Shown in pieces: positions 6,263 through 30,008 of a DNA stretch of 32,000 bases. Positions within the stretch are counted from its first letter, which is position 1; every line of letters starts with the position of its first letter. The position numbers were made by a program, and so were the translations under genes. This stretch comes from Alteribacter aurantiacus DSM 18675. GTDB lineage: Bacteria; Bacillota; Bacilli; Bacillales; Salisediminibacteriaceae. The stretch spans positions 2,006 to 34,005 of the forward strand of contig NZ_AUCJ01000010.1 in assembly GCF_000429705.1 (NCBI RefSeq). Reading direction: 5' to 3'. Under the pieces are notes generated by a model that saw only the letters and a list, made by a program, of their open reading frames with translations, searched no databases and was not told the origin of the DNA.

Positions 6263-6321
6263 AAAATGTCGGGGGACAGACCCCGCACAAAATGTTTTGG
6301 GGACAGACCCCCGAACATTTT
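6263..6321. repeat. Tandem doublet of the REP-like palindrome family
   Basis: AAAATGTCGGGGGACAGACCCCGCAC (6263-6288) is immediately followed by AAAATGTTTTGGGGACAGACCCCCGAACATTTT (6289-6321). Both carry the family core GGGG-ACAGA-CCCC. The doublet lies 25 nt upstream of the protease start. Confidence 0.8.
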
Positions 6322-7213
6322 GCGGATGGATGTTCATAAAACGTGAATGCTTGTTCTTGAGGCTTTTCCGCACGAGCTATGATGCATATGTACGGGTGGC
6401 CGCTAACACTTGATTGTCTGCTACATTGTTTTGGACTTTACGGATAGCTTTGTTGTGTGGTCGTGATGCGGGTTCCTTCGTTTCCCGTGACGGGCTCAGG
6501 GATACAAAAGGGTAGGCAACCTTAGAGGGGGGACTGCCAATCTTTTTGACCACTGAGCGCATGCACTGAAAAGGGTAGTGTGATCCTTTGTCACTGGGAG
6601 GAATGACAGAGGATGTTGACTCGTTTGTGAGCGTTCATACTATGATAGGTGATAGAATGCAGCTTGCCCGGGCCATTTTAGGTTTCGTGTCGGGTAAGTT
6701 GGTAGATCCGGAAACAAGGGACATTCATCATGTTCCATACGTAACGAACGTCTCGAACCTTTTCAGAAGTTTAAGTGGGCTTCGATCCTCCTTTCAGTAA
6801 TTTGGGACTGTCTGATCTGGGAGTCTCGTGTTGTTAAACTGGATTTTATAGAACAATTTGGAATAAATCACTAGCTTTTAGCCAAAATAAGCCAAAAGAA
6901 TTCTGAAAATTTGTAAAACTAGTAAAGAAGTTTGGTAAAATGTGAGATTGGTGTGGGATTTGTAGTATTTTTCCACTAAAGACTGATAATTGTAAAGATT
7001 TGGTTCGAAAGAAGTGAGGAAATATGTCGGATCAAGGAGGAGGCCTACGGTACGAAAGTATTGAGCCAAATTAGGGGTAGGGAGAGGGAAGACGTTCATG
7101 AGTCCTGGGTCTAATCTAGATAAAAGGGTCCTTACCTCATACAAGAAACAAAAGAAAGTCGAAACGATAGGAACATAGATACCCAGGGGTGGATAGACCC
7201 ACGTTCACCACTT

Positions 7214-7236
7214 CACATGGGGTCTGACCCTATGTG
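7214..7236. repeat. REP-like palindrome, variant-arm copy
   Basis: CACATGGGG-TCTGA-CCCTATGTG has 9-nt arms (one G-T pair) around the same core. A possible degenerate neighbour, GGGGTGGATAGACCCAC, lies at 7186-7202. Confidence 0.7.
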
Positions 7237-7263
7237 AAAGCGTGCACATGGTGCGGATACTAC

Positions 7264-7306
7264 AAAAAAAGAGCTGGGAGCGGTAAATGCGGCCGCCCCC
7301 GGCTCT
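7264..7306 (-). terminator. Rho-independent terminator of the GH13 gene
   Basis: On the minus strand, AGAGCCGGGGGCGG...CCGCTCCCAGCTCT is followed by TTTTTTT, just after the stop at 7314. Confidence 0.75.
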
Positions 7307-7313
7307 AGGTCTT

Positions 7314-9095
7314 TTATTGTTCCTTCAAAATGAGAGATTCGTATGCTCCGACGGTTATGGACAGTTTTTCTTTCTTTACTTTTAGTGCTTCACCGTCTTT
7401 GAACATTGGTCGGAATGTTCCTTGGGCAAGTCCTTCGAGGGTCACTGTTTGCTCGTTGTCGTCTCCGTTTAGGATGACAATAAATCGGTTGGTGTCATCG
7501 GTTCGCTCATAGGCAACGGATTGTTCGCCTTTTTCAGCAGAAAGAAAGCGAAACGATCCGTCACGAAACGCGCGATAGTCTTTTCGAAGAGCGATCAATT
7601 GCTTATAGAAAGCAAACAGCTCTTTGTCCTGGCGATCTTCTTCCCACACCATTGGTTTGCGGCAATCCGGGTCGTTGCCCCCGTCCATCCCAATTTCATC
7701 TCCGTAGTAGATGCAAGGTGCACCGGTGTACGTAAGCTGGAACGTGGCGGCCAGCTTCATTCGTGCTTTATCTCCGTCCGCGATGGTTAGGAGGCGAGGG
7801 GTGTCATGGGAATCGAGCAAGTTGAACGCGACTTCGTTTGCTTGCTTTGGATAAGCGACTTGCATGGCGTCCAAACGTCCCATGAAGCTTTCAGCATCAA
7901 TCGTTTTCTTAGCGAAAAATTCAAGAATGCTGTTTGTGACCGGGTAGTTCATGACCGCATCGAACTGGTCACCACCAAGCCAAGCCATGGAATTGTGCCA
8001 AATTTCACCGAGAATGTACGCTTCAGGATTGGCTTTTTTCACCACATCACGGAAGTCGCGCCAAAATGCGTGGTCGATCTCATTTGCGACATCCAAACGC
8101 CAGCCGTCCACGCCGATATCTTCTACCCAATAACGGGCCACCTCAAGAAGGTACGCTCTTACTTCACGGTTTTCTGTGTTAAGCTTTGGCATGGATGCTA
8201 CGAATCCGAACGTGTCATAGTTTGGCAACGGTTCTGTTTTCACTTCGTTTTCACGAAGGTGGAACCACTTGGCAAAACGAGATTGGCGACCGTTTTTCAA
8301 CACATCTTGGAACGGTGGGAAGTAGTAGCCGCTATGGTTGAAGACCGCATCGAGCATAATTTTAATGCCACGCTTGTGGGCTTCATCTACTAAGCGCTTG
8401 GCCGTTTCGTTGTCTCCAAATTGAGGGTCGACCTTTAAATAGTCAATCGTATCGTATTTATGATTTGATTTCGCTTCAAAAAACGGTGTGAAATAAATAC
8501 ACGTAATCCCGAGGTCTTGAAGGTAGTCGAGGTTATCGATGACTCCTTGTAAGTCGCCGCCGAAAAAGTTGTCGCGGGTCGGAACGGCATCGGCATGCCA
8601 TTCTTCAACGCCCTCAGGATTCAATGATGCGTCCCCGTTGGCAAAACGTTCAGGGAAAATTTGATAAAAAACCGCATTTTTGACCCAAGCAGGAGGTGCA
8701 TTTACGTCTGCAGTATTCAAGAACGGAAACTCGAACATGCCTGACGGACTCTCAAGCATACCGATCCCGGATGTAGACTGGGCGCCTTCTTCTTGAAAAC
8801 CGACTTCATTGTAATAGAGCGTTTCTTTACCGCTCTCAAGTCGAAAGGCATAAGCGAAACGACGAAATTCAGGTTTCACAGCAGCTTCGTAATAATCAAA
8901 TAAACGGTCGCTCGCAAATTTGTTCATTTTCGTCGTCTGAATGTAGTCCTGAGTAAAGCGGTACTTGTCGCCGTGAATTAAAAACACATTGTCCATATCG
9001 TTTCTCTTCGTTCGAAGGCGGATATGAAGGGTCTCATGGTCGTACGCATACGCATAGTGCGACTTCGGTTGGTGAAGAATAGCCTCTAATAACAT
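7314..9095 (-). CDS. GH13 neopullulanase / cyclomaltodextrinase / maltogenic alpha-amylase
   Basis: ORF 7314-9098. All four GH13 conserved regions are present: DAVFNHSG, GWRLDVANE, GEIWH, LLDSHD. There is an N-terminal domain and no signal peptide, as in intracellular cyclomaltodextrinases. The ATG at 9095 lies 7 nt after AGGAGGG; position 9098 is a TTG. Confidence 0.9.
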   Translation of the reverse strand: MLLEAILHQPKSHYAYAYDHETLHIRLRTKRNDMDNVFLIHGDKYRFTQDYIQTTKMNKFASDRLFDYYEAAVKPEFRRFAYAFRLESGKETLYYNEVGFQEEGAQSTSGIGMLESPSGMFEFPFLNTADVNAPPAWVKNAVFYQIFPERFANGDASLNPEGVEEWHADAVPTRDNFFGGDLQGVIDNLDYLQDLGITCIYFTPFFEAKSNHKYDTIDYLKVDPQFGDNETAKRLVDEAHKRGIKIMLDAVFNHSGYYFPPFQDVLKNGRQSRFAKWFHLRENEVKTEPLPNYDTFGFVASMPKLNTENREVRAYLLEVARYWVEDIGVDGWRLDVANEIDHAFWRDFRDVVKKANPEAYILGEIWHNSMAWLGGDQFDAVMNYPVTNSILEFFAKKTIDAESFMGRLDAMQVAYPKQANEVAFNLLDSHDTPRLLTIADGDKARMKLAATFQLTYTGAPCIYYGDEIGMDGGNDPDCRKPMVWEEDRQDKELFAFYKQLIALRKDYRAFRDGSFRFLSAEKGEQSVAYERTDDTNRFIVILNGDDNEQTVTLEGLAQGTFRPMFKDGEALKVKKEKLSITVGAYESLILKEQ

Positions 9096-9130
9096 CAATA
9101 GTCCCTCCTGCTAATTCCATAATTTCACAC

Positions 9131-9158
9131 AAAATTGTGCGGGGTCAGACCCCTGTGG
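9131..9158. repeat. REP-like palindrome, half-degenerate copy
   Basis: AAAATTGTGCGGGG-TCAGA-CCCCTGTGG: canonical left arm, diverged right arm. Confidence 0.7.
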
Positions 9159-9214
9159 TACCGGTGGATATACAATGATAAAATAGTACTTTACATATTG
9201 AGTAAAAGTGAGTA

Positions 9215-9229
9215 ATGCAAGCGTTTGCA
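9215..9229. promoter_or_regulatory. cre-like / LacI-family operator palindrome in a divergent promoter region
   Basis: ATGCAAGCGTTTGCA fits the published cre consensus WTGNAANCGNWNNCW at every defined position. It lies between the divergent amylase and mannose-6-P isomerase genes. Confidence 0.55.
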
Positions 9230-9331
9230 CAAGCACTTCACAAACGCTCTACTTTTTGACATTTTCAGTATAGCACGACCGTGAAAGCGTGTCCATTTCA
9301 GATTGGACAGGCCATATAAGGAGGAATAACG

Positions 9332-10285
9332 ATGAACAACATCTTATTATTTGAACCCGTGTTAAAAGAAAAAATATGGGGCGGGAAGAAGCTTGCCGAA
9401 CAGTTCGGATACGACACGCCGTCCAGCCGCACAGGAGAGTGCTGGGGGATATCTGGGCATGAAAACGGCACAAACGTTGTGGTAAACGGTCCCCACCAAG
9501 GCCAAACCTTGCGCGATCTGTGGAATAACCACCGTGACCTATTCAACAACGAACCAGGAGACGAGTTCCCCCTACTCGTAAAAATCATCGATGCCCAAGA
9601 TGACTTGAGCGTCCAAGTCCACCCGGATGACACTTATGCAAAAGAGCATGAAGGCTATGCATTCGGAAAATCAGAATGCTGGTACATTCTCGATCACGAA
9701 CCGGACGCTCGACTTATCCTCGGCCATAATGCAAAGAACCGCGACGAACTCCGTGGAATGGTCGACAATGGGGAGTGGGATCGCCTCTTTCGGGAAGTTC
9801 CAGTGAAGAAGGGGGACTTCTACTACGTACCAAGTGGGACCGTGCACGCCATCGGAAAGGGAATCGTCATTCTGGAAATTCAACAAAGCTCCGATATTAC
9901 GTACCGTTTTTACGACTACGACCGAACAGACGATGCAGGAAACACACGGGACTTGCATATCGCCGATTCCATCGCCTGTTCCATGGTGCCCCACAAAGAC
10001 GCGCGCTCGGATCAAAAGGAATGGACCGAACAAGATCTCACGGTTACACGTTTCATTGAAGAAAACTATTTCACAGTCTACCACTGGACACTAAACGGAA
10101 CAGTGACCCGTGACGTGAACGAATACATGCTCGTAAGCGTCGTCGATGGAGAAGGGCAGATCACAATCGGAAACCATACCCATCAGCTTGAAAAAGGAAG
10201 CCATTTTATCATCCCGTCAACCGCAGATCGCTATGAACTCAACGGCAACATGACCCTCATGGCTGCCCATACAACAAGTTCGTAA
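9332..10285 (+). CDS. manA: Mannose-6-phosphate isomerase, class I
   Basis: Full ORF with AAGGAGGA 6 nt upstream. The N-terminus FEPVLKEKIWGG, QVHPDD and YVPSGTVHAIG (cupin metal site) are typical of the Bacillus-type ~315-aa ManA/Pmi. Confidence 0.9.
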   Translation: MNNILLFEPVLKEKIWGGKKLAEQFGYDTPSSRTGECWGISGHENGTNVVVNGPHQGQTLRDLWNNHRDLFNNEPGDEFPLLVKIIDAQDDLSVQVHPDDTYAKEHEGYAFGKSECWYILDHEPDARLILGHNAKNRDELRGMVDNGEWDRLFREVPVKKGDFYYVPSGTVHAIGKGIVILEIQQSSDITYRFYDYDRTDDAGNTRDLHIADSIACSMVPHKDARSDQKEWTEQDLTVTRFIEENYFTVYHWTLNGTVTRDVNEYMLVSVVDGEGQITIGNHTHQLEKGSHFIIPSTADRYELNGNMTLMAAHTTSS

Positions 10286-10352
10286 GGGTAAAAAAAGCCG
10301 AGAGACGCATGAACGCATGATCATCAGGGCTCACGCCATCAATCAAACAAAG

Positions 10353-10404
10353 AACCCCTCCATTTTTCAGGTATATGATCCTGACCGAAGGAGGGGTTGT
10401 TTTA
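10353..10404. terminator. Stem-loop between convergent genes (probable bidirectional terminator)
   Basis: AACCCCTCC (10353-10361) pairs with GGAGGGGTT (10390-10398). The 28-nt loop contains its own small TCAGG/CCTGA stem. The T-tail GTTTTA is weak. Confidence 0.5.
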
Positions 10405-10411
10405 GATGGGG

Positions 10412-10696
10412 TTAATAGTGTGAAGGACGTTGGTGGGACATTTCCAAGAAGGAGCGGAGGATGACTTCGTCTGAGTTGATGTTTTCGATGTGCTTCGCTT
10501 CCACGCTTCGTTTAAACTCGAGGATGTCTTCTTGAAGAAAAGCCATCTGTTCTATGGCCTCACCCATTCCTTTGTTTAAGAAGGTGAGGTCTTCTTTTTT
10601 TACCATGGCACGCTCTATGTGAGCGAGTTTATGAAGGACGGATTTGAGTAAGTCCATTTCTGTAACGGTTGAGGACGATTTTAAGGCGGTTGTCAT
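10412..10696 (-). CDS. Hypothetical 94-aa predicted-helical protein, translationally coupled to the ssb-like gene
   Basis: Its ATG overlaps the stop of the upstream SSB gene as ATGA (10693-10696). AGGTG lies 7 nt upstream. The heptad-like charged sequence suggests a coiled coil or helical bundle. I recognise no family. Confidence 0.6.
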   Translation of the reverse strand: MTTALKSSSTVTEMDLLKSVLHKLAHIERAMVKKEDLTFLNKGMGEAIEQMAFLQEDILEFKRSVEAKHIENINSDEVILRSFLEMSHQRPSHY

Positions 10697-11055
10697 TGTT
10701 CGGCACCTGCTTCCTGTAAAGTGGAGGATTCTGTTTTTTTAAGTTGAAGGAATTGGACGTCTTCTGCGATCATGTCCATTCTGAAAATCCGTTTGTTATC
10801 ACTGTTTTCGTATACTTTTGACTGCAATCGGCCCGAAACTGCGACCATCGATCCTTTGCCGCAATGTTCGGCTATCTTTTCTGCATTGTTTCGAAAGATC
10901 GTGCACGGAATAAAATCGGCGTCGTAGTTGCCGCTTTGGTTTTTGTAGCTCCTCTTCACAGCTAGTGAAAATCTTGATAGTGGCACACCATCCTTTGTGT
11001 AGACAAGTTCGGGGTCTTTAACGATTCGTCCGATTAAATTTACTTGGTTCAACAT
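10693..11055 (-). CDS. Single-stranded DNA-binding protein, short SsbB-like form without an acidic C-terminal tip
   Basis: OB-fold SSB signature: MLNQVNLIGRIVKDPELVYTKDG...AVKRSYKNQSG...DFIPCTIF...GSMVAVSGRLQSKVYE. The protein is 120 aa and ends ...LQEAGAEQ, with no DDDxPF-type tail. GGAG follows directly after the upstream stop. Confidence 0.85.
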   Translation of the reverse strand: MLNQVNLIGRIVKDPELVYTKDGVPLSRFSLAVKRSYKNQSGNYDADFIPCTIFRNNAEKIAEHCGKGSMVAVSGRLQSKVYENSDNKRIFRMDMIAEDVQFLQLKKTESSTLQEAGAEQ

Positions 11056-11070
11056 GGGGAATCACGCTCC

Positions 11071-11730
11071 TTAGTTTTGAAAAGCTTCTTTTAACAAACA
11101 AGACAATTTCCATTCGCGCTCGACATACGTCTGGTAATGAATATGACTTGGCACCGGAAACAGGGACGTGAGTTTTTCGGTTGAAAGTGACAATGGTGCA
11201 GGAGGGGATGGGTGTTGATCTAAAAATGTTACAGATGTTTCTCTTGTTAGTGAGTGTGCTTTTTGGCGAGTTGTTTCGAGTTTTACTTGTGATTGAATGT
11301 AGTGATAATAACTACTCCAAGGATAGTCTTCCGGATTTTTTACCATACCCGCCGCTCGCGGATTGTTATGGATGTAAGCACTCGTCTTCATTAAGGCGTG
11401 TGATGACGGGACCGGAGTTGAATAGTAGCGGTCTTGAAACAGATGACCTTTTAAGTCGTACTTTTTATTGATGTATCTGGCGTACATGGAGTTGAGCGGC
11501 TGCATCACCTTATGAGGTGGATCGCTTTTTGTTCCGATCAAGAGATGGACATGGTTGGTCATCAAGCAGAAAGCATGAAGATGAAAAGTTGAATAATGAT
11601 AAGCATCATCGAGCAGTGAAACATACTTGAAGTAATCTTTTCGTTCAAAAAACAAGTTACTTCGGTGGTTTCCGCGGCAAGTAATGTGGTAGATGGCACC
11701 AGGAAACCACTGGCGGGGTTTTCGAGCCAT
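11071..11730 (-). CDS. IS200-like Y1 HUH transposase-family protein (RAYT-type, COG1943-like), 219 aa
   Basis: N-terminal YHITCRGN, an HUH motif H60-V61-H62 (MTNHVHLLIG), and a catalytic-Tyr helix S-A-Y119-IHNNPRAAGMV. GGAG lies 8 nt upstream of the ATG. There is no tnpB and there are no IS ends. Confidence 0.8.
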   Translation of the reverse strand: MARKPRQWFPGAIYHITCRGNHRSNLFFERKDYFKYVSLLDDAYHYSTFHLHAFCLMTNHVHLLIGTKSDPPHKVMQPLNSMYARYINKKYDLKGHLFQDRYYSTPVPSSHALMKTSAYIHNNPRAAGMVKNPEDYPWSSYYHYIQSQVKLETTRQKAHSLTRETSVTFLDQHPSPPAPLSLSTEKLTSLFPVPSHIHYQTYVEREWKLSCLLKEAFQN

Positions 11731-11816
11731 ATAGGTAGCTCCTTTAGTGGAAATTTCAATTTTTTGGGGAGAGTGAGTGGTCGAACGATCCTCCTTTACT
11801 TAAAGCATTTTTTTGC

Positions 11817-11854
11817 CGTACGTGAAGTTTGCCCTAGGGGATACTTCACGTACG
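11817..11854. repeat. Perfect 12-bp stem hairpin upstream of the RAYT-like gene
   Basis: CGTACGTGAAGT (11817-11828) pairs with ACTTCACGTACG (11843-11854). The 14-nt loop contains the palindrome CCCTAGGG. The hairpin lies about 90 nt upstream of the RAYT-like start codon. Confidence 0.6.
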
Positions 11855-12310: not shown

Positions 12311-12343
12311 AAAAATTGTGCGGGGACAGACCCCGCACAATTT
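12311..12343. repeat. REP-like palindrome, perfect copy, doubling as the asnB terminator
   Basis: AAATTGTGCGGGG-ACAGA-CCCCGCACAATTT has 13-nt perfect arms at 12313-12343. It overlaps the asnB stop codon (12342-12344) by 2 nt. On the minus strand the hairpin is followed by TTTTTA. Confidence 0.85.
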
Positions 12344-14237: not shown

Positions 14238-14467
14238 AATTGTGTGAACACTCCTTTAATTTCTGTGTCACCTATGCGACTTTTGTCGAGCAGGTGAATG
14301 TTTCGTGTAACTATGTAACTTAAGAATACATGGAAAAAGTTTCATCAGGTGAATATTTTTACAAAAATGTCATATATATTGAATAAACCACACACGATAT
14401 ATGGTGTGTGAAAATAGCTTCGATTACCCAAAAACAACCAGGTCAAACCGCCTAGGACAATATGTCA

Positions 14468-14498
14468 CAATATTGTGCGGGGTCAGACCCCTTTGTCG
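14468..14498. repeat. REP-like palindrome, half-degenerate copy
   Basis: ACAATATTGTGCGGGG-TCAGA-CCCCTTTGTCG: canonical left arm, diverged right arm. Confidence 0.7.
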
Positions 14499-14799: not shown

Positions 14800-14884
14800 T
14801 GCTTCGCACTTCCCTGAAATAGAACGTGCATCAAATCATATGATTTTGTTTACGTCAGTAAGGGGTAAAATGTAAGCGAACACA

Positions 14885-14925
14885 ATCCCGTCATGAAGCC
14901 TAAACGCTTTGTGGCGGGATTTTTC
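14885..14925 (+). terminator. Probable terminator of the csp gene
   Basis: ATCCCG (14885-14890) pairs with CGGGAT (14915-14920) and is followed by TTTTT. The loop is long, which lowers confidence. Confidence 0.5.
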
Positions 14926-14967
14926 TGTGTCCATAAAAGTGTCTTTCACAGAAATACATATGTTCAC

Positions 14968-15000
14968 AAAATTGTGCGGGGTCAGACCCCGCACAATTTT
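14968..15000. repeat. REP-like palindrome, perfect 33-nt copy
   Basis: AAAATTGTGCGGGG-TCAGA-CCCCGCACAATTTT has 14-nt perfect arms flanked by A4 and T4. Confidence 0.85.
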
Positions 15001-15464
15001 GTTAGATTGATGAATAATAAGTTGAGAGGTGAGGCGGGGAGTGGGGTGTCCACTCTCGCCCCTCTTTTCTTATTCCCTTATTTGTAGTACGTGATGACAT
15101 ATTTGAGGGAGGCGAAAGCGTTCGAACAGCTTGGGCGTTGCGCGTTGCCGTCTTAAAGAAGTTTGAAGATCGGGTGTTTAACTTCTCTTCTGAAGAGGTA
15201 AAGTCACTGTACTCTTTCTCCATTGATTCCGTCATTGCTAGATCGAACCAATGGACCTTTAACGTTATGAGAGAAAGAGCGTTTACGAACGGTTGAGGTA
15301 ATCGAGGTCGCTTGGGCAATTGACGTATTCATGACCTGATTGTAAGTACAAATGAAATCCGACGGAGTTTGACAAAAAGTTTTATATTTTTTCTGTCACT
15401 TTAGAAGGATATTGAATCGGGGATGAAGAATATTACACACATAACCGAAAGGAGGAGTTTGCTT

Positions 15465-16034: not shown

Positions 16035-16065
16035 TCAGGATTGACTCTTTAAAATAAATAAATCG

Positions 16066-16104
16066 AAAGCCGGCGTCCTTGATTGATCGGGACGTCGGCT
16101 TTTT
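16066..16104 (+). terminator. Rho-independent terminator of hpf
   Basis: AAAGCCGGCGTCC pairs with GGACGTCGGCTTT and is followed by a T-run. Confidence 0.8.
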
Positions 16105-16117
16105 CACGTCTTTTAGA

Positions 16118-16134
16118 GGGGACCTATGTGAAAG
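16118..16134. repeat. Truncated copy of the variant-arm REP-like element
   Basis: GGGGACCTATGTGAAAG matches the right half of 7219-7240 (GGGGTCTGACCCTATGTGAAAG), but with an internal deletion. Confidence 0.45.
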
Positions 16135-16323
16135 AATGAGACTACTAAAAAAGCAGCACACGACTTTTTAAGTGGTTAAATTAAGTGGTTAAATTGAATG
16201 CGAATGTCTCCACTCGGATACAAGCATGTTTTGAGAAACCAACTTGTATCAGTCTTTTAAAAGTAGGGTGTTTTCGTATAGATTGTTGCTTTTTATTATT
16301 TTCTTCATCACTTAGAATTTTTG

Positions 16324-16482
16324 TTGAAGCATACGGGCCCTTCGCTTTCCGTGGCGGTGCTAGCAAGCCGGTAGAAATATCCTGCTTCTTCCTCTGCAAG
16401 TAACGCTTCGTAGTGATCTGCGTCGAAGCAACTCGCAGAAAACTCACGATGCAAACAGTAGTCTCGAGCCCTTCTGCTTCAA
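16324..16482. repeat. MITE-like long-hairpin repeat element, copy B (inverted relative to copy A)
   Basis: The ends are TTGAAGCA...GGGC and GCCC...TGCTTCAA. The internal block at 16340-16369 is the reverse complement of 109-138 with 27/30 identity. ORF-track peptides ...LPAPPRKAK... (46-321) and ...LAPPRKAK... (16181-16606) are the same repeat translated. Confidence 0.6.
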
Positions 16483-16599
16483 TTTTTCTTGTATAAAAGC
16501 AACAATACTTCCGAAAATAGCTTAAAAGTAATAATCGTTTCACACATAGCTTTAAAAGCACTGAAAAAAGTAAAGATTGAACTTTTCCAATGCATTTGG

Positions 16600-16629
16600 A
16601 AAACATTTTCTGGGGTCTGACCCTCTGTT
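16600..16629. repeat. REP-like palindrome, degenerate copy
   Basis: AAAACATTTTCTGGGG-TCTGA-CCCTCTGTT. The core and the AAAACATTTT flank (reverse complement of the 6289-6298 flank) are retained; the arms are decayed. Confidence 0.6.
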
Positions 16630-16665
16630 ACTCCTTTCACAATCCTGGTCTGTCGGGGGATCTTC

Positions 16666-16694
16666 TTGTAAGGGGTCTTGGAAACTGATAAAAT
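16666..16694 (+). promoter_or_regulatory. Candidate SigA promoter of secA
   Basis: TTGTAA (16666-16671), a 17-nt spacer, then TAAAAT (16689-16694), about 95 nt upstream of the secA ATG. Confidence 0.45.
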
Positions 16695-16788
16695 GAATGA
16701 TAACTGTCAGAAGACTTGTACGATCAGAATCCTGACGATAACATCATGGGATATCCCATTGGAATATACGAAAAGGGAGCAATGTCCA

Positions 16789-19449: not shown

Positions 19450-20554
19450 ATGGAAATGTCAGATATCAGAAACGAACTTTCAACTATGGCTAAGCGATTA
19501 GCGGACTTCAGGGGGTCTCTTTGACCTGGAAAACAAAGAGACTCGCGTAGCCGAACTTGACGAACTTATGTCTGAGCCAGGCTTTTGGGATAGTCAAAAT
19601 GAAGCCCAAAAAGTGATTGATGAAAGTAACCAGCTTAAAGAAGGTGTAGAAACATACCGGAAGCTGGAAGGGATATTTGAAGATCTTGAAGTATCCTATG
19701 AGCTGGTAAAAGAAGAAGGCGACGATGAGTTGTTGGATGACTTGGTAGATGGGGTAAAAGATCTTGGTGAAAAATTGAACCAATTCGAACTTCAACTTCT
19801 ATTAAGTGAACCTTACGACAAGAACAACGCCATTCTGGAATTGCACCCGGGTGCAGGGGGGACCGAATCTCAAGACTGGGCTTCTATGCTCCTTCGTATG
19901 TACACCCGTTGGGCAGAAGGAAATGGATTCAAGGTTGAAACGATGGACTACCTCCCAGGTGAGGAAGCTGGTGTGAAAAGCGTGACCCTTTTAATTAAAG
20001 GTCATAACGCATATGGTTACCTGAAAGCTGAAAAAGGTGTCCACCGTTTAGTCCGTATTTCTCCATTCGATTCATCGGGACGCCGTCACACGTCGTTTGT
20101 ATCCTGTGATGTTGTACCGGAATTAAATGATGATGTAAGTGAAGTAAGCGTGAGCCCAGACGAATTAAAGATCGATACGTATCGTGCTAGTGGTGCCGGT
20201 GGTCAGCATATTAACACAACGGACTCGGCTGTAAGGATTACGCACTTGCCGACGAATACCGTCGTAACGTGTCAATCGGAACGTTCGCAAATCAAGAACC
20301 GGGACCAGGCGATGAAAATGCTTAAAGGGAAATTGTTGCAGTTGAAGATTGAGCAGCAACAAAAAGAACTCGATGAAATTCGTGGTGAACAATCGGATAT
20401 CGGCTGGGGAAGCCAAATCCGTTCATACGTGTTCCACCCGTATAACATGGTGAAAGATCACCGTACGAACCATGAAACCGGAAATACCCAAGCGGTAATG
20501 GATGGAGATCTTGGTACGTTCATCGATGCTTATTTGCGTTCGAAAATCGATTAA
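19450..20554 (+). CDS. prfB: Peptide chain release factor 2, join(19450..19521,19523..20554) with programmed +1 frameshift
   Basis: Frame 0 reads [24 protein letters not shown] and then hits an in-frame TGA at 19522-19524. Skipping T19522 continues as [23 protein letters not shown]... in the frame of ORF 19568-20554. The SPF and GGQ motifs are present. Confidence 0.93.
19510..19525 (+). promoter_or_regulatory. prfB autoregulatory frameshift site
   Basis: AGGGGG (internal SD-like) - TCT - CTT TGA C: the canonical CUU UGA C slippery/stop context with an SD-like element 3 nt upstream. Confidence 0.9.
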
Positions 20555-25934: not shown

Positions 25935-25984
25935 ACACAACCCAATCAATGTGAGTCGATAGAAAACTCCAATTAAATCTAAGT

Positions 25985-26030
25985 AACCACATCTTTGCTA
26001 GGACAAGCTAGCAAGGATGTGGTTTTTGTT
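25985..26030 (+). terminator. Rho-independent terminator of the M23 peptidase gene
   Basis: AACCACATCTTTGCTAG pairs with CTAGCAAGGATGTGGTT (one mismatch) and is followed by TTTTG. Confidence 0.8.
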
Positions 26031-26101
26031 TTATGAAGAAAGGGCAAATAGAACAATCTATATTATATTAGGATGATGGTAACGGAAAGGGGAGGGTTGA
26101 G

Positions 26102-26485
26102 GTGTCAATCGTTATCCCAGGAGTGATCGGGCTTTTAAGTATGATTCTCATGGTCTATATACATGTGCTCATTGAAAGAGTCTATCGCCAAAGGGAGAAA
26201 ACGTTAGTTGTCCTTCACTTTCCAAACCTTATGTTTACTTGGTTGATGTATGGGGTGACGTACATAACGGTTAACGGTTTTGTGTTTAATGGTCTTCGTG
26301 AGCGAGGGAGAAAAGAGGTGTTATTGGAAGCATTCATTGATTCTGCTTCATTTATCGTTATTGCTTATGTTGTGATCGCTCCTTTTCTTAGGAAATATCT
26401 TAGAAGGTATTATCCAATGAAAGGGACAAATCTGGTGTATTTAAAGGTGAAGAATAATGAAAAAAAGAGAAATACGAATACATGA
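26102..26485 (+). CDS. Hypothetical small membrane protein (127 aa, about 3 TM)
   Basis: GTG start 5-6 nt after GGGGAGGG. Three hydrophobic segments and a basic C-terminus. The coding region is AT-rich and I recognise no family. Confidence 0.55.
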   Translation: MSIVIPGVIGLLSMILMVYIHVLIERVYRQREKTLVVLHFPNLMFTWLMYGVTYITVNGFVFNGLRERGRKEVLLEAFIDSASFIVIAYVVIAPFLRKYLRRYYPMKGTNLVYLKVKNNEKKRNTNT

Positions 26486-26676
26486 TTCTTTCTTTTGCAC
26501 GCATAATAAAAAGAGTTTTTAAGAGAAATGAAGTAGAACAATTTAATATGGATTCCATATTTGGTAAGATAGGAAGTAACATGTTTCGTAATGTGCGAGG
26601 TGACGTTGTGATTCCTTTGTTGTTAGAAGGTGTTGGCGATGTCCCTTACATAAACACAGGTAGTTGGGCCAAGTAA
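26482..26676 (+). CDS. Hypothetical 64-aa protein, ATGA-coupled to the upstream ORF
   Basis: Its start overlaps the previous stop (ATGA at 26482-26485). No recognisable motif and very AT-rich, so coding status is uncertain. Confidence 0.35.
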   Translation: MILSFARIIKRVFKRNEVEQFNMDSIFGKIGSNMFRNVRGDVVIPLLLEGVGDVPYINTGSWAK

Positions 26677-26747
26677 GTAGGAAGCAAAGATAAAGAGAAA
26701 GACTAAACGGGGGATCAGCCTAGTGGTTTCCGTAATGAGGTGAGTAA

Positions 26748-28265
26748 ATGAACATCGATAAGAGGTTTTTGCCGCTTATAGTATCGCTGTCCGTGATTTT
26801 TGGTGCTGTTGTCATGTTTATTGTAATGGAGGTTGCGGATGGTTCGTCTGCCGAGCCGGTATTAAATAACAGTGAAGCTGAGACAGAGCTGGCAAATGAT
26901 GCGGTTGAAGAAGATGAACAAGGTACCGAGGAGGCCATTGAAACCTCGGGCTCACAACTGTCGGACGACAAAGCCGAGAAGTTCCATAAAGCCTACTCGA
27001 TCATTAAAGATCGATATGTAGAAGAGCTGGATGAGGACGAGCTGATGGAAGGCGCCATTAATGGCATGTTGGAAGTGCTTGATGATCCGTATTCCGTTTA
27101 CATGGACGAAGCAACCGCCCGTGAATTCATGGATTCTTTGGATTCCTCATTTGAAGGAATTGGTGCGGAAGTTAGCATGACTAATGGAAAGGTGACAATT
27201 GTAGCACCGTTCAGGGATTCACCTGCTGAAAAAGCCGGTTTGCGTCCAAACGACCAAATCGTTGGTATCGATGGAGATAGTATCGAAGGGCTCTCCCTTT
27301 ATGAGGCCGTTTTACAAATCAGAGGTGAAAAAGGGACAACGGTGACATTAACCATTGAACGTCCTGGTGTAAGTGATGATTTGAAAATTGATGTTATTCG
27401 AGACACGATTCCAATCGAGACGGTTACAAGCGAAGTGATTGAACAAGACGGAGCAACCATTGGGGTCTTAGAGATCAGGTCATTTGCGGAAAGTACCGCT
27501 AGAGACTTTGAGGAAAAGCTTTTTGAACTTGAAGAAGACGGGATTGATGGTCTAATTATTGACGTTCGCGGAAATCCTGGCGGACTTCTGCAAAGCGTTG
27601 AGGATATCGGGAAGCTTCTTGTCCCTGGCGGGGAGCCGATCGTGCAAATTGAAAACCGTAGCGGTGAACGAATTCGCCATGTTTCCAATTTGGAAGAGGA
27701 AAAAGAGTATCCGATTGCTACCTTGATCAATGAAGGAAGTGCTTCAGCTTCCGAGATTTTAGCTGCTGCTTTAAAAGAAGCAGGAGGTCACCATGTCGTT
27801 GGTGAAACAACGTTTGGTAAAGGGACTGTACAACAAACCATCCCACTTGGAGACGGTAGTGATTTGAAGCTTACTCTATTCAGATGGTTAACGTCTGCAG
27901 GGAATGATATTAATGAATCAGGAGTAGAACCGACCGAGCACGTTCGTCAACCTGACTTCTTCTACGTATCTCCTGTACAAGCGGAAGATCCACTAACATT
28001 TGATACGAACAGCGAACAGGTTAAGAACGCCCAGCTCATGCTTGAAGGATTAGGCTACGATCCACAGCGAACGGACGGGTATTTCAGTAGAGAAACGGAA
28101 GATGCGGTGAGGGCGTTCCAAGAAGATGAAAGCATGGATGTAACCGGTGAGGTTGATGAAGATACGGCATTTGCACTTCAAGATCGCGTTGTAGAAGCTG
28201 TACGAGATCGAGAGAATGACAACCAATTCAAACGTGCTGTTGAATTGCTAATTGAAGATCAGTAA
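26748..28265 (+). CDS. ctpB: S41 carboxy-terminal processing protease with PDZ and a C-terminal peptidoglycan-binding domain
   Basis: N-terminal TM anchor, a PDZ domain (GIGAEVSM...SPAEKAGLRPNDQIVGIDG), catalytic Ser in NEGSASASEI and Lys in TFGKGTVQ. The C-terminal region has a PG_binding_1-like sequence (GYDPQRTDGYFSRETEDAVRAFQ). The symbol is assigned by synteny only. Confidence 0.85.
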   Translation: MNIDKRFLPLIVSLSVIFGAVVMFIVMEVADGSSAEPVLNNSEAETELANDAVEEDEQGTEEAIETSGSQLSDDKAEKFHKAYSIIKDRYVEELDEDELMEGAINGMLEVLDDPYSVYMDEATAREFMDSLDSSFEGIGAEVSMTNGKVTIVAPFRDSPAEKAGLRPNDQIVGIDGDSIEGLSLYEAVLQIRGEKGTTVTLTIERPGVSDDLKIDVIRDTIPIETVTSEVIEQDGATIGVLEIRSFAESTARDFEEKLFELEEDGIDGLIIDVRGNPGGLLQSVEDIGKLLVPGGEPIVQIENRSGERIRHVSNLEEEKEYPIATLINEGSASASEILAAALKEAGGHHVVGETTFGKGTVQQTIPLGDGSDLKLTLFRWLTSAGNDINESGVEPTEHVRQPDFFYVSPVQAEDPLTFDTNSEQVKNAQLMLEGLGYDPQRTDGYFSRETEDAVRAFQEDESMDVTGEVDEDTAFALQDRVVEAVRDRENDNQFKRAVELLIEDQ

Positions 28266-28270
28266 GTGTA

Positions 28271-28301
28271 AAAGACCCGCTCGTTGTTGAGCGGGTTTTT
28301 T
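28271..28301 (+). terminator. Rho-independent terminator of the S41 protease gene
   Basis: ACCCGCTC pairs with GAGCGGGT and is followed by TTTTTT. Confidence 0.85.
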
Positions 28302-28607
28302 GTGCAGGGAAAAAGTGAAAGCAGGTGTGCGAATGTCGTGATGATGGTGGGGAAAGTAGGGTAATGGCAGAACGGCTTTGATGAGGCTGAAAAAGGGCGA
28401 TATCAGTTCGTGAAGATTCGTGAAAAACGATTAGCGGATCGGAGGTTTCTTGGATATAGGGCAGTACTTTCTACTATGCTCGTGATTTATATGATTCATT
28501 TTTAAAAAAGGGTGCCCTTTTCTTCCAGATCAATTAAAATGAAAGTAGTGTGATAAGGAAATAACGGAGGTCAGATCGATAAACGTATTTGACCAAGGAG
28601 GCGGACG

Positions 28608-29921
28608 ATGGAAGCGGTTTTGTGGGAAATGCTTCAGGCAGTTGGACGTTTCTTCCTTCATCCAGCTTTGTACCTGTTCCTATTTGCGTGTTTATGGTTT
28701 GGTATTAGCAGAGTGAAGCGAGAGCGTCGCGATTTTCATACAAGGATCAATGATGTTGTGTCCGATTTATTATCTCCTCTAGGGGTGGCATTCGTAACCG
28801 GACTTATTCTTACTGTGGTGTTTGTGGTCGTCGGTGTGACGATTCCCTTTGCCATGTTTTTACTTATGACCGTTGTTTGGGTGTTTTTCCTACCCTTTAA
28901 AAATGCGAGGCTACTAAGTTTTTCGTTTACAGGTAGCATTGCCTATCTTTTAACGATGGTATTCCCTTCGTCAGGTAGTGGCTGGGGCTGGCTCGACCAA
29001 CAGCTCACGGTCATTAGTGCAATGGAAGGCATTCACGTTGCGTGGTTTTTAGGATCGATCTTTTTCGCGGAGGCTTTGCTTATTTTAGTTAATGGAAGAA
29101 AAGGTTCAGGGCCAAAACTTGAAAAAAGTAAACGAGGAAAGACAGTTGGAGCCCATGAAGTCAATCGTCTGTGGCTGGTTCCAAGTATCCTCTTGCTCCC
29201 TGCAGGAGGATTGGCCGTAAGTGAGATGGGAATTTGGCCGTTTGGACAGACGGCTATAGGGATGTCATTGGAAACGGCAGGGCTCATGTTTGTTCCGGTC
29301 ATTCTTGGTTTTCGTGCGGTAGTGCGATCAGGCTATCCTGAAGATATTTATAGAAGACTAGGGAGCAAGCTTCTTATCGTAGCATCTATAGCCTTGATTA
29401 CGACTATAGCCGGGGTGTTTGTAAATGTTCTAGCTTCGGTAGTGCCATTGATTATTCTTGTTGGCCGTGAACTGATCTTTTTCATTCATCATAAACGAGA
29501 AAGCAAGTCGCAAAGTATGTTCAGAAGCGCTAAAGAAGGCTTGGTGGTCCTAGGTGTGATTCCTCGTTCCGTTGGAGACGAGATGGGAATCAAAGTAGGG
29601 GAGAAAGTAATGAAAGTAAATGGACAACCAGTGTCGACACAGATGGAATTGTACGAGGCACTTCAGAAAAAAGGGGCTTTTTGTAAGCTGCAAGTTCTTG
29701 ATGAACAAGGGGAGCTTAGGTTTACTCAATCCTCTGTTTATGAAGATGATCATTATCAGCTCGGTCTTCAATTTGTACCAGACGATGATATCGGAAATCT
29801 ATCGACAGAAGGACTTCGCTATACCTTCTTGTTACAGCAAGACCGGGAAAAAATTCATCAAGCAGGTACGGAAGAACACGAACATGAAACGGAAGCGGCA
29901 GCGACTAAGGAACGGGAATAA
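28608..29921 (+). CDS. minJ: Polytopic membrane protein with C-terminal PDZ domain, MinJ-like
   Basis: Multiple TM segments followed by a PDZ domain (GVIPRSVGDEMGIKVGEKVMKVNGQPVSTQMELYEAL). It sits between ctpB and uvrB, as minJ (yvjD) does in B. subtilis. AAGGAGG lies 7 nt before the ATG. Confidence 0.75.
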   Translation: MEAVLWEMLQAVGRFFLHPALYLFLFACLWFGISRVKRERRDFHTRINDVVSDLLSPLGVAFVTGLILTVVFVVVGVTIPFAMFLLMTVVWVFFLPFKNARLLSFSFTGSIAYLLTMVFPSSGSGWGWLDQQLTVISAMEGIHVAWFLGSIFFAEALLILVNGRKGSGPKLEKSKRGKTVGAHEVNRLWLVPSILLLPAGGLAVSEMGIWPFGQTAIGMSLETAGLMFVPVILGFRAVVRSGYPEDIYRRLGSKLLIVASIALITTIAGVFVNVLASVVPLIILVGRELIFFIHHKRESKSQSMFRSAKEGLVVLGVIPRSVGDEMGIKVGEKVMKVNGQPVSTQMELYEALQKKGAFCKLQVLDEQGELRFTQSSVYEDDHYQLGLQFVPDDDIGNLSTEGLRYTFLLQQDREKIHQAGTEEHEHETEAAATKERE

Positions 29922-29927
29922 GAACAA

Positions 29928-29959
29928 GGCGGAGGACCAACAAGGTCCTCCGTCTTTTT
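29928..29959 (+). terminator. Rho-independent terminator of the minJ-like gene
   Basis: GGCGGAGGACC pairs with GGTCCTCCGTC and is followed by TTTTT. Confidence 0.85.
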
Positions 29960-29975
29960 GTAACTAATGGTACTA

Positions 29976-30008
29976 AAAAGTTCGGGGGTCTGACCCCGCA
30001 CAAATGTT
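29976..30008. repeat. REP-like palindrome, asymmetric-arm copy
   Basis: AAAAGTTCGGGGG-TCTGA-CCCCGCACAAATGTT. The arms are nearly identical to copy 6263-6294 (AAAATGTCGGGGG-ACAGA-CCCCGCACAAAATG). Confidence 0.75.

Follow-up and report, generated by a model that had tools for sequence, protein, structure and literature searches.

Intergenic palindromes of Alteribacter aurantiacus form a REP/REPIN-like population with a probable TIRYT-type Y1 partner

Work on REP/REPIN-RAYT systems has been done almost entirely in Proteobacteria, and the pairing of REP/BIME elements with the TnpA-REP (RAYT) of E. coli, like that of REPINs with RAYTs, is reportedly treated in Ton-Hoang 2012. Our comparison with these systems draws on Nunvar 2010 (PMC2817692), Bertels & Rainey 2011 (PMC3116915) and Messing 2012 (PMC3479197); no REP/REPIN-RAYT system in Bacillaceae was found described in the literature searched. 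A related type, the TIRYT/TIRtron (Di Nocera, De Gregorio & Rocco 2013, PMC3733652), corresponds approximately to subclass 2.1 (Quentin et al. 2018, PMC6006769) and to group 1 (Bertels et al. 2017, PMC5581495), and published TIRYT inverted repeats share GGGGWSAS (PMC3733652, PMC6006769). Subclass 2.1/group-1 TIRYTs form the largest class-2 Y1 subclass (PMC6006769), and two surveys reported them without REPs (PMC6006769, PMC5581495); REP-like sequences were not found near subclass 2.1 genes by Quentin et al. 2018 (PMC6006769), and 16-mer abundance was weak for group 1 RAYTs in Bertels et al. 2017 (PMC5581495).

We analyzed a 32-kb stretch of the A. aurantiacus genome, referred to as the window. 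The original prediction that one palindrome recurs in its intergenic DNA was borne out: the motif GGGGWCWGACCC occurs at nine sites (match starts 6272, 6299, 7219, 9141, 12322, 14479, 14978, 16612 and 29985) and in one truncated copy where 0 were expected, and matches appeared in 0 of 100 dinucleotide-preserving shuffles. With palindromic sites counting once per strand, there are 13 matches overall. Exact copies of the 21-mer GTGCGGGGWCWGACCCCGCAC stand at 12318-12338 and 14974-14994, and versions with at most three mismatches at 6268 and 29981. The copies are as follows, the strand given being that whose centre reads CTG:

6263-6288, minus strand: family copy, outer unit of a doublet; core GGGGACAGACCCC at 6272-6284, arms a TTGTGC-core-CGACA hybrid
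6289-6321, minus strand: family copy, inner unit of the doublet; core at 6299-6311, arms AAAATGTTCG / AAAACATTTT
7212-7238, plus strand: family copy with CACAT-type arms TTCACATGGGGTCTGACCCTATGTGAA (motif match, palindrome extent, fold)
9131-9158, minus strand: half-site AAAATTGTGCGGGGTCAGACCCC (motif match, intergenic alignment)
12313-12343, minus strand: full palindrome AAATTGTGCGGGG-ACAGA-CCCCGCACAATTT (motif and 21-mer match, fold)
14466-14498, minus strand: half-site CAATATTGTGCGGGGTCAGACCCC in the divergent asnB/csp gap (motif match)
14964-15004, minus strand: best copy, a 41-nt palindrome with a CAG/CTG loop (21-mer match, fold)
16118-16134, plus strand: truncated CACAT-type copy GGGGAC-CTATGTGAAAG (compared with the 7219 copy)
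16600-16629, plus strand: degenerate copy AAAACATTTTCTGGGGTCTGACCCT, 165 nt 5' of secA (motif match)
29976-30008, plus strand: hybrid-arm copy AAAGTTCG-GGGGTCTGACCCC-GCACAAATG (motif match, 21-mer with at most three mismatches)

Non-coding DNA makes up 19.8% of the window and holds all ten palindrome cores (P ~1e-7), as predicted for copies lying outside coding sequences, while one arm of the 12313-12343 palindrome shares 2 nt with the asnB stop codon. The predicted clustering also held, with nine of the ten copies at 6.2-16.7 kb. The motif is not confined to the window: scanning a Logan contig of the same strain, which reaches window-equivalent 39.9 kb, revealed two further intergenic copies at window-equivalent 35215 and 37402. 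Over the window and this extension of ~8 kb, which together define our counts, the density is approximately one copy per 3-7 kb, and the units are arranged as singlets, half-sites and doublets spaced by 27 nt. They occupy 5' leaders, 3' ends, gaps between divergent genes and a position 3' of a gene with its own terminator-like hairpin; about half lie at 3' ends or in convergent or co-directional gaps between functionally unrelated neighbours. No match was found in the viral contigs searched, which fits vertical inheritance.

Individual copies differ in context and completeness. The doublet at 6263-6321 has a core-start spacing of 27 nt, both centres (6272/6299) in the same orientation and a fold of -17.7 kcal/mol (z -4.5), with its outer unit 52 nt 5' of the start of an S8 protease gene. 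Orthologous doublets occur in A. salitolerans (locus L016, 15886/15913) and A. cf. populi (L017, 17304/17331). The copy at 7212-7238 has 13-nt arms and follows the end of a maltogenic amylase gene by 83 nt, while the half-site at 9131-9158 lies 46 nt 5' of an amylase start and keeps its half-site state in three Alteribacter species, where this amylase-leader site reads GGGGWCTGWCCCCGCACAATTTTGTGTRAAATTATG and the left flank is unalignable. The palindrome at 12313-12343, which abuts the asnB stop codon, has arms of 15 nt in which an A.A mismatch adjoins the loop (-16.6 kcal/mol, z -7.0), and it has position-matched copies at L016 9398, L017 9270 and B. shivajii L020 9315. The half-site at 14466-14498 is kept in A. 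cf. populi and decayed in A. salitolerans. In the best copy, 14964-15004, the arms pair perfectly over 18 positions, giving a DNA fold of -20.3 kcal/mol (z -8.3), and this copy has orthologues at L016 6679 and L017 6448; it sits 3' of csp, past that gene's own terminator-like hairpin at 14884-14921. The copy at 16118-16134 (GGGGACCTATGTGAAAG), 84 nt 3' of hpf and called truncated in the original prediction, corresponds to the right half of the 7219-type copy (GGGGTCTGACCCTATGTGAAAG) and carries an internal deletion. In the hpf-secA gap, which holds the degenerate copy, E. alkalicola carries a doublet (L018 7700/7727) ~180 nt from secA. The hybrid-arm copy at 29976-30008 is 64 nt 3' of a PDZ-domain gene.

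Each unit, 26-41 nt long, is a single hairpin lacking a terminal-repeat-plus-body structure. Full copies fold as DNA hairpins with z of -7 to -9 relative to shuffles, and the half-sites at 9141, 14479, 16612 and 29985 show no gain in folding over shuffled sequence. In a set of 41 copies drawn from 8 genomes, covariation over 17 stem pairs was 0.355 compared to 0.172 in shuffles, a value reached by 0 of 500 shuffles, with slid controls at or below 0.134; changes on both sides were seen at 14 of the 17 pairs (109 cells vs 51 in shuffles). The centre is A or T, never G/C, in all GGGNNCNGNNCCC matches counted (nine sources). Pairs closing the invariant CWG loop are lineage-specific yet complementary, on unchanged arms: at matching sites, A. 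aurantiacus and A. salitolerans have the tip GGGG-TCWGA/TCTGT-CCCC, A. cf. populi has GGGG-ACWGT-CCCC, and Evansella and B. shivajii have GGGACCWGGTCCC.

These structural features bear on two alternatives. The first, raised in the original prediction, is that the units are MITEs, that is, deletion derivatives of an IS with a DDE transposase, terminal inverted repeats and target-site duplications. Dispersed intergenic copies with apparent subtypes and graded variants would suit such elements; however, units of this size have no internal body and form one hairpin rather than two terminal repeats and a spacer, the 40 kb examined holds no DDE transposase or parental IS, viral contigs have no matches, and positions are common to several genera. 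We therefore rejected a MITE identity on unit size and structure and on the lack of IS or DDE transposase in the window and extension, and regard it as extremely improbable. The second alternative, that the palindromes are operators of a dimeric transcription factor whose regulon carries the box TTGTGCGGGG-N5-CCCCGCACAA, draws on their dyad symmetry, conserved half-sites and the positions kept upstream of amylase, S8 protease, secA and asnB. This too is very unlikely, if slightly less so, given that about half of the copies lie at 3' ends or in convergent or co-directional gaps beside genes of unrelated function, that doublets and arrays are present, and that the density exceeds that of a regulon. 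Moreover, the stem covaries freely while pairing is kept, as would be expected of a folded strand more than of a fixed operator, and genomes of 34-72% GC contain related cores whose outer arms are quite unlike one another.

We compared the intergenic positions of the copies across relatives. For most of the copies in the window, A. salitolerans and A. cf. populi carry a counterpart in the matching intergenic region, and for some of them Evansella and Bacillus shivajii do as well, while the DNA around shared copies is often unalignable. Gains and losses are seen too, including lineage-specific extra copies in A. cf. populi (L017 533/581 and 13207). No excision or insertion events were observed in the compared loci. 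Judged from these alignments, most copies have long occupied their shared intergenic positions and did not jump there recently, and the suggestion of current mobility was not upheld. Nor was 'graded decay', since some half-decayed copies are conserved as half-sites and the variant arms, GTTCG/CGAAC as well as TTGTGC-core-CGAAC hybrids, reappear in Evansella and B. shivajii as subtypes. REPIN-RAYT systems have been described as inherited vertically and replicating extremely slowly (bioRxiv 10.1101/2021.07.10.451892), and although the original prediction listed shared positions as a refutation, we therefore do not count them as refuting a REP-type family.

The same retention invites a third reading, that the palindromes are host cis-elements (intrinsic terminators, mRNA 3'/5' stabilisers or sites for nucleoid or RNA-binding proteins) now kept in fixed positions by selection, whatever their origin, and that the Y1 enzyme encoded among them has no present role; a common host factor would then account for the similarity of sites, and co-evolution with that factor for the lineage-specific tips. 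Consistent with this are the same-region counterparts in three Alteribacter species and partly in Evansella and B. shivajii amid often unalignable DNA, and the half-site 5' of the amylase ribosome-binding site, which is near-identical in three species even though it is unable to form the long hairpin. Full copies are also flanked by A/T runs on both sides, resembling bidirectional terminators (at 12313-12343 and 14964-15004 the runs pair with each other), and REPs are known to act in transcription termination and mRNA stabilisation (cited in PMC6006769). Against it, every type of context is occupied, including the site 3' of the gene with its own terminator-like hairpin at 14884-14921, and the CTG strand follows the direction of transcription in just 5 of 9 co-directional cases. 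A consensus terminator scan flags one unit only, at 6285-6270, and on comparison with terminator criteria four copies are half-sites and several copies are 5' of genes.

Within the cluster of palindromes lies a gene that the original prediction had overlooked, together with its neighbours:

11071-11730, minus strand: single-copy HUH/Y1 gene of RAYT/TIRYT type, WP_051314586.1, 219 aa (NF047646, PF01797, BLASTP)
10693-11055, minus strand: short SSB gene, starting 15 nt past the Y1 stop
10412-10696, minus strand: orf94 (gene order comparison)
11817-11854, no strand assigned: unrelated hairpin with a 12-bp stem (CGTACGTGAAGT...ACTTCACGTACG), ~85 nt 5' of the Y1 start

The encoded protein matches PF01797 (Y1_Tnp; 3.4e-16, residues 13-123) and scores 73.4 bits against NCBIfam REP_Tyr_transpos NF047646, under the cutoff of 80. 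Its motifs are intact, with NHVHLL as the HUH motif and the catalytic Tyr in SAYIHNNP, the class-2 Y---NP signature. In its C-terminal 70-residue tail there was no Pfam match and no HTH/Bac_DnaA_C-like domain was detected, and the protein had no match among PDB sequences. Compared by BLASTP with published TIRYTs, using sequences transcribed from Additional file 5 of Di Nocera 2013 (PMC3733652), it shows 34-40% identity at E of 1e-24 to 1e-33 (pfs148A 40%, pca3049 36%, gbm2474 37%, sml1152 38%, dau2153 34%), whereas E. coli RAYT b228 shares 19% identity with it (E 7e-4) and P. fluorescens 3939 shares 28%. These identities assign the protein to the TIRYT type (RAYT group 1, subclass 2.1), and membership of the canonical REP-associated Y1 groups (Bertels 2/3; Quentin 2.2/2.5) was rejected on 19%/28% as against 34-40% to TIRYTs and on the NCBIfam score under the cutoff.

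The Y1 gene is present once, its sole match at 90% identity or above being itself, and has syntenic orthologues in A. salitolerans (73%), A. cf. populi (62%) and Evansella and B. shivajii (45-48% identity). Such a graded syntenic single-copy series matches the distribution described for domesticated RAYTs (PMC5581495). The SSB gene and orf94 are probable operon partners, and the Y1-SSB-orf94 order is common to Alteribacter, Evansella and B. shivajii. Y1 genes recur directly 5' of natural-transformation ssDNA genes, namely ssbB-like SSB, comM and dprA. The hairpin at 11817-11854 is kept at orthologous Alteribacter loci, and is only a possible part of the palindrome system. The only Y1-proximal palindrome in the A. 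aurantiacus locus is 12313-12343, 583 nt 5' of the Y1 start, with no copy in the orf94-manA gap; an inverted pair, 9132-9153 / 12322-12343 (91% complementary), spans the Y1 operon and manA over 3.2 kb. The units' related sequences support the original view of a dispersed REP-type family rather than independently evolved terminators, a view strengthened by the Y1 gene sitting within the cluster.

The same core surrounds Y1 genes in other genera. In Rubeoparvulum (L038) the Y1 gene (6001-6561) is bracketed by two inverted doublets of the form GGGGTCAGACCCC-26 nt-GGGGTCTGACCCC, one at 5923-5974 and the other at 6530-6581, and the locus has two additional doublets. In Salinibacillus (L021) the Y1 gene has GTGTGGGGACWGTCCC(C) on either side, at distances of 80 nt in front and 60 nt behind, and in E. 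alkalicola (L018) Y1-ssb-orf77 is bracketed by 37-nt arms at 9277-9313 and 11630-11666. Inverted doublets occur in L016, L017, L018 and L038, with a core spacing of 27 nt (39 nt in L038). No such palindromes were present within 11-20 kb of the Y1 locus in Neobacillus novalis (L022, 53% identity over the core) or of a related Y1 locus in Clostridium algoriphilum (L039). The bracketing of Y1 genes in three other genera argues against host cis-elements, and a purely host-factor model does not predict the match to the published TIRYT motif; we consider that reading unlikely, though it has more in its favour than the MITE and operator alternatives.

We favour as probable the explanation that the palindromes are a vertically inherited REP/REPIN-like population of A. 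aurantiacus whose likely partner is the domesticated TIRYT-type Y1 enzyme at 11071-11730 (minus strand). Its foundations are the family and the confinement of its copies to intergenic DNA, the Y1 gene and the type to which it belongs, the core flanking Y1 genes elsewhere, regional retention and compensatory change. If IS200/IS605 TnpA and E. coli TnpA-REP are a guide, a unit in single-stranded DNA (e.g., on the lagging-strand template or during recombination) would fold into a hairpin whose tip consists of the G4/C4 stem and one variable closing pair around the invariant CWG loop. The Y1 enzyme would bind this tip and cut and rejoin nearby, and at a very low rate such events would copy, replace or homogenise units. 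Low-rate processing would explain long-lived positions, conserved arms and a lineage-specific tip. Separately from any Y1 role, some units have probably been put to use by the host: at the asnB 3' end, the full hairpin and its A/T flanks may be a terminator or 3' stabiliser, and leader elements may be formed by the units just 5' of the ribosome-binding sites of the S8 protease and amylase genes. Speaking against the partnership, the Y1 gene in A. aurantiacus is not closely flanked by palindromes, and the GT[AG]G guide tetranucleotide of canonical RAYT substrates is absent. The survey results for subclass 2.1 and group 1 weigh on the same side, as do the palindrome-free N. novalis and C. algoriphilum loci. 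Near-complete regional retention and conserved half-sites unable to form the long hairpin would also fit host-selected, transposase-independent sites.

The locus offers a clean Gram-positive case in which a Y1 gene of a type thought to be REP-less accompanies a tip matching the TIRYT motif, and in which several genera share the position of the Y1 gene and many repeat positions while their tips differ by compensatory swaps. This combination makes two questions testable: what TIRYTs recognise, and whether repeats are homogenised in place or move. More tentatively, and with a chance we would put well short of even, Bacillales TIRYTs may maintain their own REP/REPIN populations, with a deeply conserved tip of G-rich stem and CWG loop, positions fixed across genera and the tip rewritten per lineage; fixed positions and concerted rewriting would imply in-situ conversion or replacement by Y1 rather than transposition to new sites. 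If so, the placement of Y1 5' of ssbB-like SSB/comM/dprA would suggest that the enzyme acts in competence or ssDNA processing. The practical effect is smaller: the hairpins break short-read assemblies (contig ends, isolate M55B130), seed spurious small ORFs and may serve neighbouring genes as terminators or leader structures.

Among known systems, bcr1 (B. cereus), RUP/BOX (S. pneumoniae) and EFAR (Enterococcus) are likewise Gram-positive dispersed intergenic repeats that are foldable and affect neighbouring transcripts, but they are MITE-like, 70-300 bp long, with terminal repeats and DDE-linked, whereas the A. aurantiacus units are Y1-linked hairpins of 26-41 nt. IS200/IS605 elements (IS608, ISDra2) share the PF01797 Y1 HUH superfamily and, in their subterminal hairpins, the recognition of imperfect hairpins in ssDNA, on which the proposed mechanism is based; the A. 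aurantiacus hairpins differ in being dispersed alone and bounding no element, and the Y1 gene is not itself mobile, given that it is single-copy and syntenic across genera. Like E. coli REP/BIME and Pseudomonas REPIN-RAYT systems, the family consists of short GC-cored extragenic palindromes in singlets and doublets, the latter inverted in L016, L017, L018 and L038; it is long-lived, its repeat sequence is specific to each lineage, and one vertically inherited single-copy Y1 gene is kept in a constant location. It differs in host phylum (Bacillota vs Proteobacteria), in its Y1 subclass (19% identity to the E. coli RAYT), in that recent duplication was not observed in A. aurantiacus, and in the hairpin foot, which carries no GTAG/GTGG tag in any window copy and reads CACAAAATTGTGC... 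or AAAATGTTCG... instead. TIRYTs differ from the A. aurantiacus system in host (no Bacillus entries were found in the supplementary lists of PMC3733652, in contrast to a Bacillaceae host here), in the close flanking of the Y1 gene by repeats and in a C-terminal HTH/DnaA_C-like domain, neither of which was detected in A. aurantiacus. Nonetheless, GGGGWSAS fits the window core (GGGGACAG at 12322, GGGGTCAG at 9141), the Y1 protein clusters with published TIRYTs at 34-40% identity, and some TIRYT repeat families are, as in A. aurantiacus, self-complementary and dispersed in dimers or clusters; what sets the A. aurantiacus units apart is that two GGGGWSAS half-sites overlap at the CWG centre to make one hairpin tip.

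The repeated palindrome described in the original prediction is real: GGGGWCWGACCC matches the window at 6272, 6299, 7219, 9141, 12322, 14479, 14978, 16612 and 29985 and matches none of 100 dinucleotide-preserving shuffles, and the long form GTGCGGGGWCWGACCCCGCAC has exact matches at 12318 and 14974. That such palindromes arose by chance is improbable. The copy at 16118-16134, previously called truncated, proved to be a deletion derivative of a 7219-type unit. As had been claimed, the copies lie outside coding sequences, with all ten cores in the non-coding 19.8% of the window (P about 1e-7). Structurally, they fall into full copies that form strong hairpins and half-sites:

14964-15004, full copy, 18 perfect pairs per arm, −20.3 kcal/mol, z −8.3
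12313-12343, full copy, −16.6 kcal/mol, z −7.0
9141, 14479, 16612 and 29985, half-sites, 5-bp tip hairpin only

Two more intergenic copies were found in the same strain's Logan contig, which reaches window-equivalent 39.9 kb; the family is therefore not restricted to 6-17 kb, and extrapolation from three copies in the 21 kb beyond that stretch would imply hundreds of copies genome-wide. Rfam at gathering thresholds matched no family across the whole window, and neither a metagenome scan with a 25-mer specific to Alteribacter nor a search of viral contigs for the palindrome returned a match. With a 21-mer whose closing pair was left free, the metagenome scan returned 13 scattered contigs (36-72% GC). 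The genome-collection scan with the 21-mer returned isolate M55B130 (34% GC), Jeotgalibacillus malaysiensis and a few MAGs, in all of which the outer arms differ. M55B130 is an unrelated isolate of low GC content; one or two additional partial arms (GCCGTGCGRGGTC...) precede or follow its full palindrome GCCGTGCGGGGTCWGACCCCGCACGGC at these positions:

L005, 4700-4860
L010, 150-330
L012, 40-220
L006, 7100-7300

Several contigs of this isolate terminate in the repeat, which suggests a high palindrome copy number together with assembly breaks. A 3.7-kb metagenome contig (Ga0310690_10081418, 53% GC) has seven units whose arms are assorted and whose core is of the GGGGACTGTCCCC type, and the same tip therefore builds dense families far outside Bacillaceae. 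No Y1 gene was found by tblastn in the M55B130 and Jeotgalibacillus locus fragments.

The gene order of the window is ROK kinase, thioesterase, large S8 protease (−), maltogenic amylase (−), manA (+), orf94-ssb-Y1 (−), asnB (−), csp (+), hpf (+), secA, prfB, yitT, cccB, ftsEX, M23 peptidase, ctpB, PDZ protein and uvrB. The prfB ORF (19450-20554) has 328 aa compared with 367 aa in annotated RF2, a difference due to the well-known programmed +1 frameshift of release factor 2. The original prediction had missed an ORF at 11071-11730 (−), which encodes an HUH/Y1 protein of 219 aa (WP_051314586.1) with intact HUH (NHVHLL) and class-2 tyrosine (Y-IHN-NP) motifs. It matches Pfam Y1_Tnp (3.4e-16) and scores 73.4 bits against the NCBIfam 'REP-associated tyrosine transposase' model, slightly below the cutoff of 80; a PDB sequence search gave no match at E <= 0.01. 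Its only close match among 5.8 billion proteins is itself, and the next matches are graded, with identities of 73% (A. salitolerans), 62% (A. cf. populi) and 43-48% (Evansella spp. and Bacillus shivajii). The locus is fixed across Alteribacter, Evansella and B. shivajii, directly 5' of a short SSB gene and beside csp-hpf-secA-prfB. This is the pattern described for domesticated RAYTs, namely single copy, fixed locus and host-like divergence (PMC5581495). Di Nocera et al. 2013 (PMC3733652) list TIRYT and RAYT sequences in Additional file 5; compared with transcribed copies of these, the protein shares 34-40% identity with the main TIRYT group (E 1e-24 to 1e-33), 19% with the E. coli RAYT (E 7e-4) and 28% with a Pseudomonas RAYT. 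TIRYTs correspond to subclass 2.1 and to Bertels' group 1 (Quentin et al. 2018, PMC6006769).

Genes for ssDNA handling in natural transformation repeatedly lie directly downstream of Y1 genes of the window clade (comparative loci L018, L020, L022/L023 and L039). In Alteribacter, Evansella and B. shivajii this downstream gene encodes a short SsbB-like SSB, across a 15-nt gap in the window (10693-11730 (−)). Neobacillus novalis and Clostridium algoriphilum have a gene for a comM-like Mg-chelatase ATPase there, with dprA next to it in the Clostridium locus. A hairpin unrelated to the palindrome family (11817-11854; 12-bp stem CGTACGTGAAGT / ACTTCACGTACG) lies about 85 nt 5' of the Y1 start. A. 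salitolerans shares it, A. cf. populi does so in part, and no T run lies 3' of it on either strand.

Inverted repeats beside TIRYT genes share GGGG[AT][CG]A[CG] (Quentin et al. 2018, PMC6006769; PMC3733652). The window core, GGGGACAG or GGGGTCAG, matches this motif, and the palindrome tip consists of two such half-sites overlapping at the CWG centre. In the window the link to the Y1 gene is loose, with one full copy 583 nt 5' of the gene, adjoining the stop codon of asnB; among inverted pairs, the best (9132-9153 with 12322-12343, 91% complementary) spans 3.2 kb including manA. The link is tight in other Bacillales genera, where palindromes bracket the Y1 gene:

Rubeoparvulum massiliense, L038, 5923-5974 and 6530-6581, inverted doublets GGGGTCAGACCCC-26 nt-GGGGTCTGACCCC around Y1 at 6001-6561, with two more doublets elsewhere in the 12.5-kb locus
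Salinibacillus kushneri, GTGTGGGGACWGTCCC(C) 80 nt before and 60 nt after Y1
Evansella alkalicola, 9277-9313 and 11630-11666, 37-nt arms around a Y1-ssb-orf77 operon

This layout is the REPtron/TIRtron arrangement, built on the core of the window family. No such palindromes were present in the 11-20 kb examined around the Y1 genes of N. novalis and C. algoriphilum, so that the association is frequent, not universal.

We aligned the intergenic regions of A. aurantiacus with their orthologues in A. salitolerans (L016) and A. cf. populi (L017) within the Y1-gene neighbourhood only, and searched for counterparts of the copies at 6-17 kb other than that at 16118. The original prediction had opposed a mobile repeat to an ancient regulatory site conserved at orthologous positions. 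For most copies at 6-17 kb, the matching intergenic region of the other species also contains a copy, in some cases beyond the genus, and gains and losses also occur. Counterparts lie at the following sites:

3' of asnB
3' of csp
half-site upstream of the amylase ribosome-binding site
doublet upstream of the S8 protease ribosome-binding site
upstream of secA
asnB/csp divergent region, decayed in A. salitolerans

Orthology is uncertain 3' of the amylase gene, because the doublet at that site in A. cf. populi has other arms and A. salitolerans retains no more than a degenerate remnant. B. shivajii (L020) shares the sites 3' of asnB (9315) and 3' of the amylase gene (14601), and an E. alkalicola doublet (L018, 7700/7727) lies about 180 nt upstream of secA, compared with 165 nt for the window unit at 16612. 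The intergenic DNA beside counterpart sites is often unalignable. Units absent from the other species occur in A. cf. populi, in the prfB-yitT spacer and 3' of manA. The two E. alkalicola assemblies compared (L018 and L019) are 99.98% identical except in a tandem-repeat region and are uninformative on presence or absence of copies; that repeat, near ftsE (L018 1300-1930, period about 51 nt), differs in copy number. The hpf-secA spacer (window 16035-16788) varies in length, from 315 nt in A. salitolerans through 750 nt in A. aurantiacus to 840 nt in A. cf. populi, and little of it can be aligned beyond the secA leader and the family unit; a 141-aa ORF within it (16181-16606 (−)) has no family match.

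The same arm classes, TTCACAAAATTGTGC/GCACAATTTTGTGAA, AAAGTTCG/CGAACTTT and hybrids of both, recur in all compared genera, and the loop-adjacent pairs vary by lineage:

GGGG-T.CWG.A-CCCC, with many T.T/A.A intermediates (TCTGT), A. aurantiacus and A. salitolerans
GGGG-T.CWG.A-CCCC, also Rubeoparvulum, Jeotgalibacillus and isolate M55B130
GGGG-A.CWG.T-CCCC, A. cf. populi and Salinibacillus
GGG-AC.CWG.GT-CCC, Evansella and B. shivajii

When 41 units from eight genomes were aligned without gaps, a 17-pair stem was supported, with both-side changes in 14 of 17 pairs (109 cells vs 51 in shuffles) and a covariation score of 0.355 (0.172 in shuffles, 0/500 reaching the observed value; slid controls, maximum 0.134). 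Among GGGNNCNGNNCCC matches from nine sources, the central base is always A or T, never G or C. Independent point mutation is an unlikely cause of the tip swaps, since identical swaps recur at several matching sites per lineage; either copying or conversion homogenises the sites, or the sites follow a change in a shared trans-acting factor. A reading built on positional persistence with concerted tip rewriting is less certain.

The most economical reading is a REP/REPIN-like population with the domesticated Y1 enzyme as its partner. IS608 TnpA and E. coli TnpA-REP serve as the model here: like them, the enzyme would recognise the tip of the hairpin when the DNA is single-stranded, and we infer that it may bind and cleave there. 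The family is not a MITE, and a transcription-factor regulon has a low probability. Compatible with the main reading, individual units may serve as host cis-elements, a plausible use to which we give appreciable weight because the conserved half-sites, in the amylase leader above all, argue for site-specific selection on at least some units. A/T runs on either side of the asnB-proximal hairpin also favour host use; however, a consensus terminator scan flagged one unit only, csp has its own terminator-like hairpin ahead of the best copy of the family, and the strand on which the unit centre reads CTG agrees with transcription in only 5 of 9 co-directional cases, on which count an orientation bias was dropped.

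Other features surround the amylase gene. A promoter at the leader half-site (−35-like CTGACC, extended −10-like TGAAATTAT) was rejected, the motif abutting the ribosome-binding site in A. cf. populi. Between the divergent manA and amylase genes, a cre/LacI-type palindromic operator (9216-9229; TGCAAGCGTTTGCA (+) / TGCAAACGCTTGCA (−)) is kept in all three Alteribacter loci. About 1 kb between the S8 protease and amylase genes (6321-7313) has no convincing gene and its ORFs have no Pfam match; blocks at about 6841-6935 are near-identical in three Alteribacter species and end at a ribosome-binding-site-like GAAAGGAGGATC in two and GAAAGGGGGATC in the third. Candidate identities for the stretch are a small gene, a promoter region and an sRNA.

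A search of the accessible literature that included literal 13-mer cores found no such family described in Bacillaceae, and Quentin et al. 2018 (PMC6006769) reported no REP-like sequences near subclass 2.1 genes. The window family works like a REP-RAYT system, but it lacks the GT[AG]G tag of canonical REPs and its Y1 protein falls outside the REP-associated groups; on these two defining tests, tag and Y1 group, it is not a canonical REP family. Although the subclass's C-terminal HTH-like domain is missing from the Y1 protein and tight flanking is missing in A. aurantiacus, the system fits the less studied TIRYT/TIRtron category by both protein type and repeat motif.
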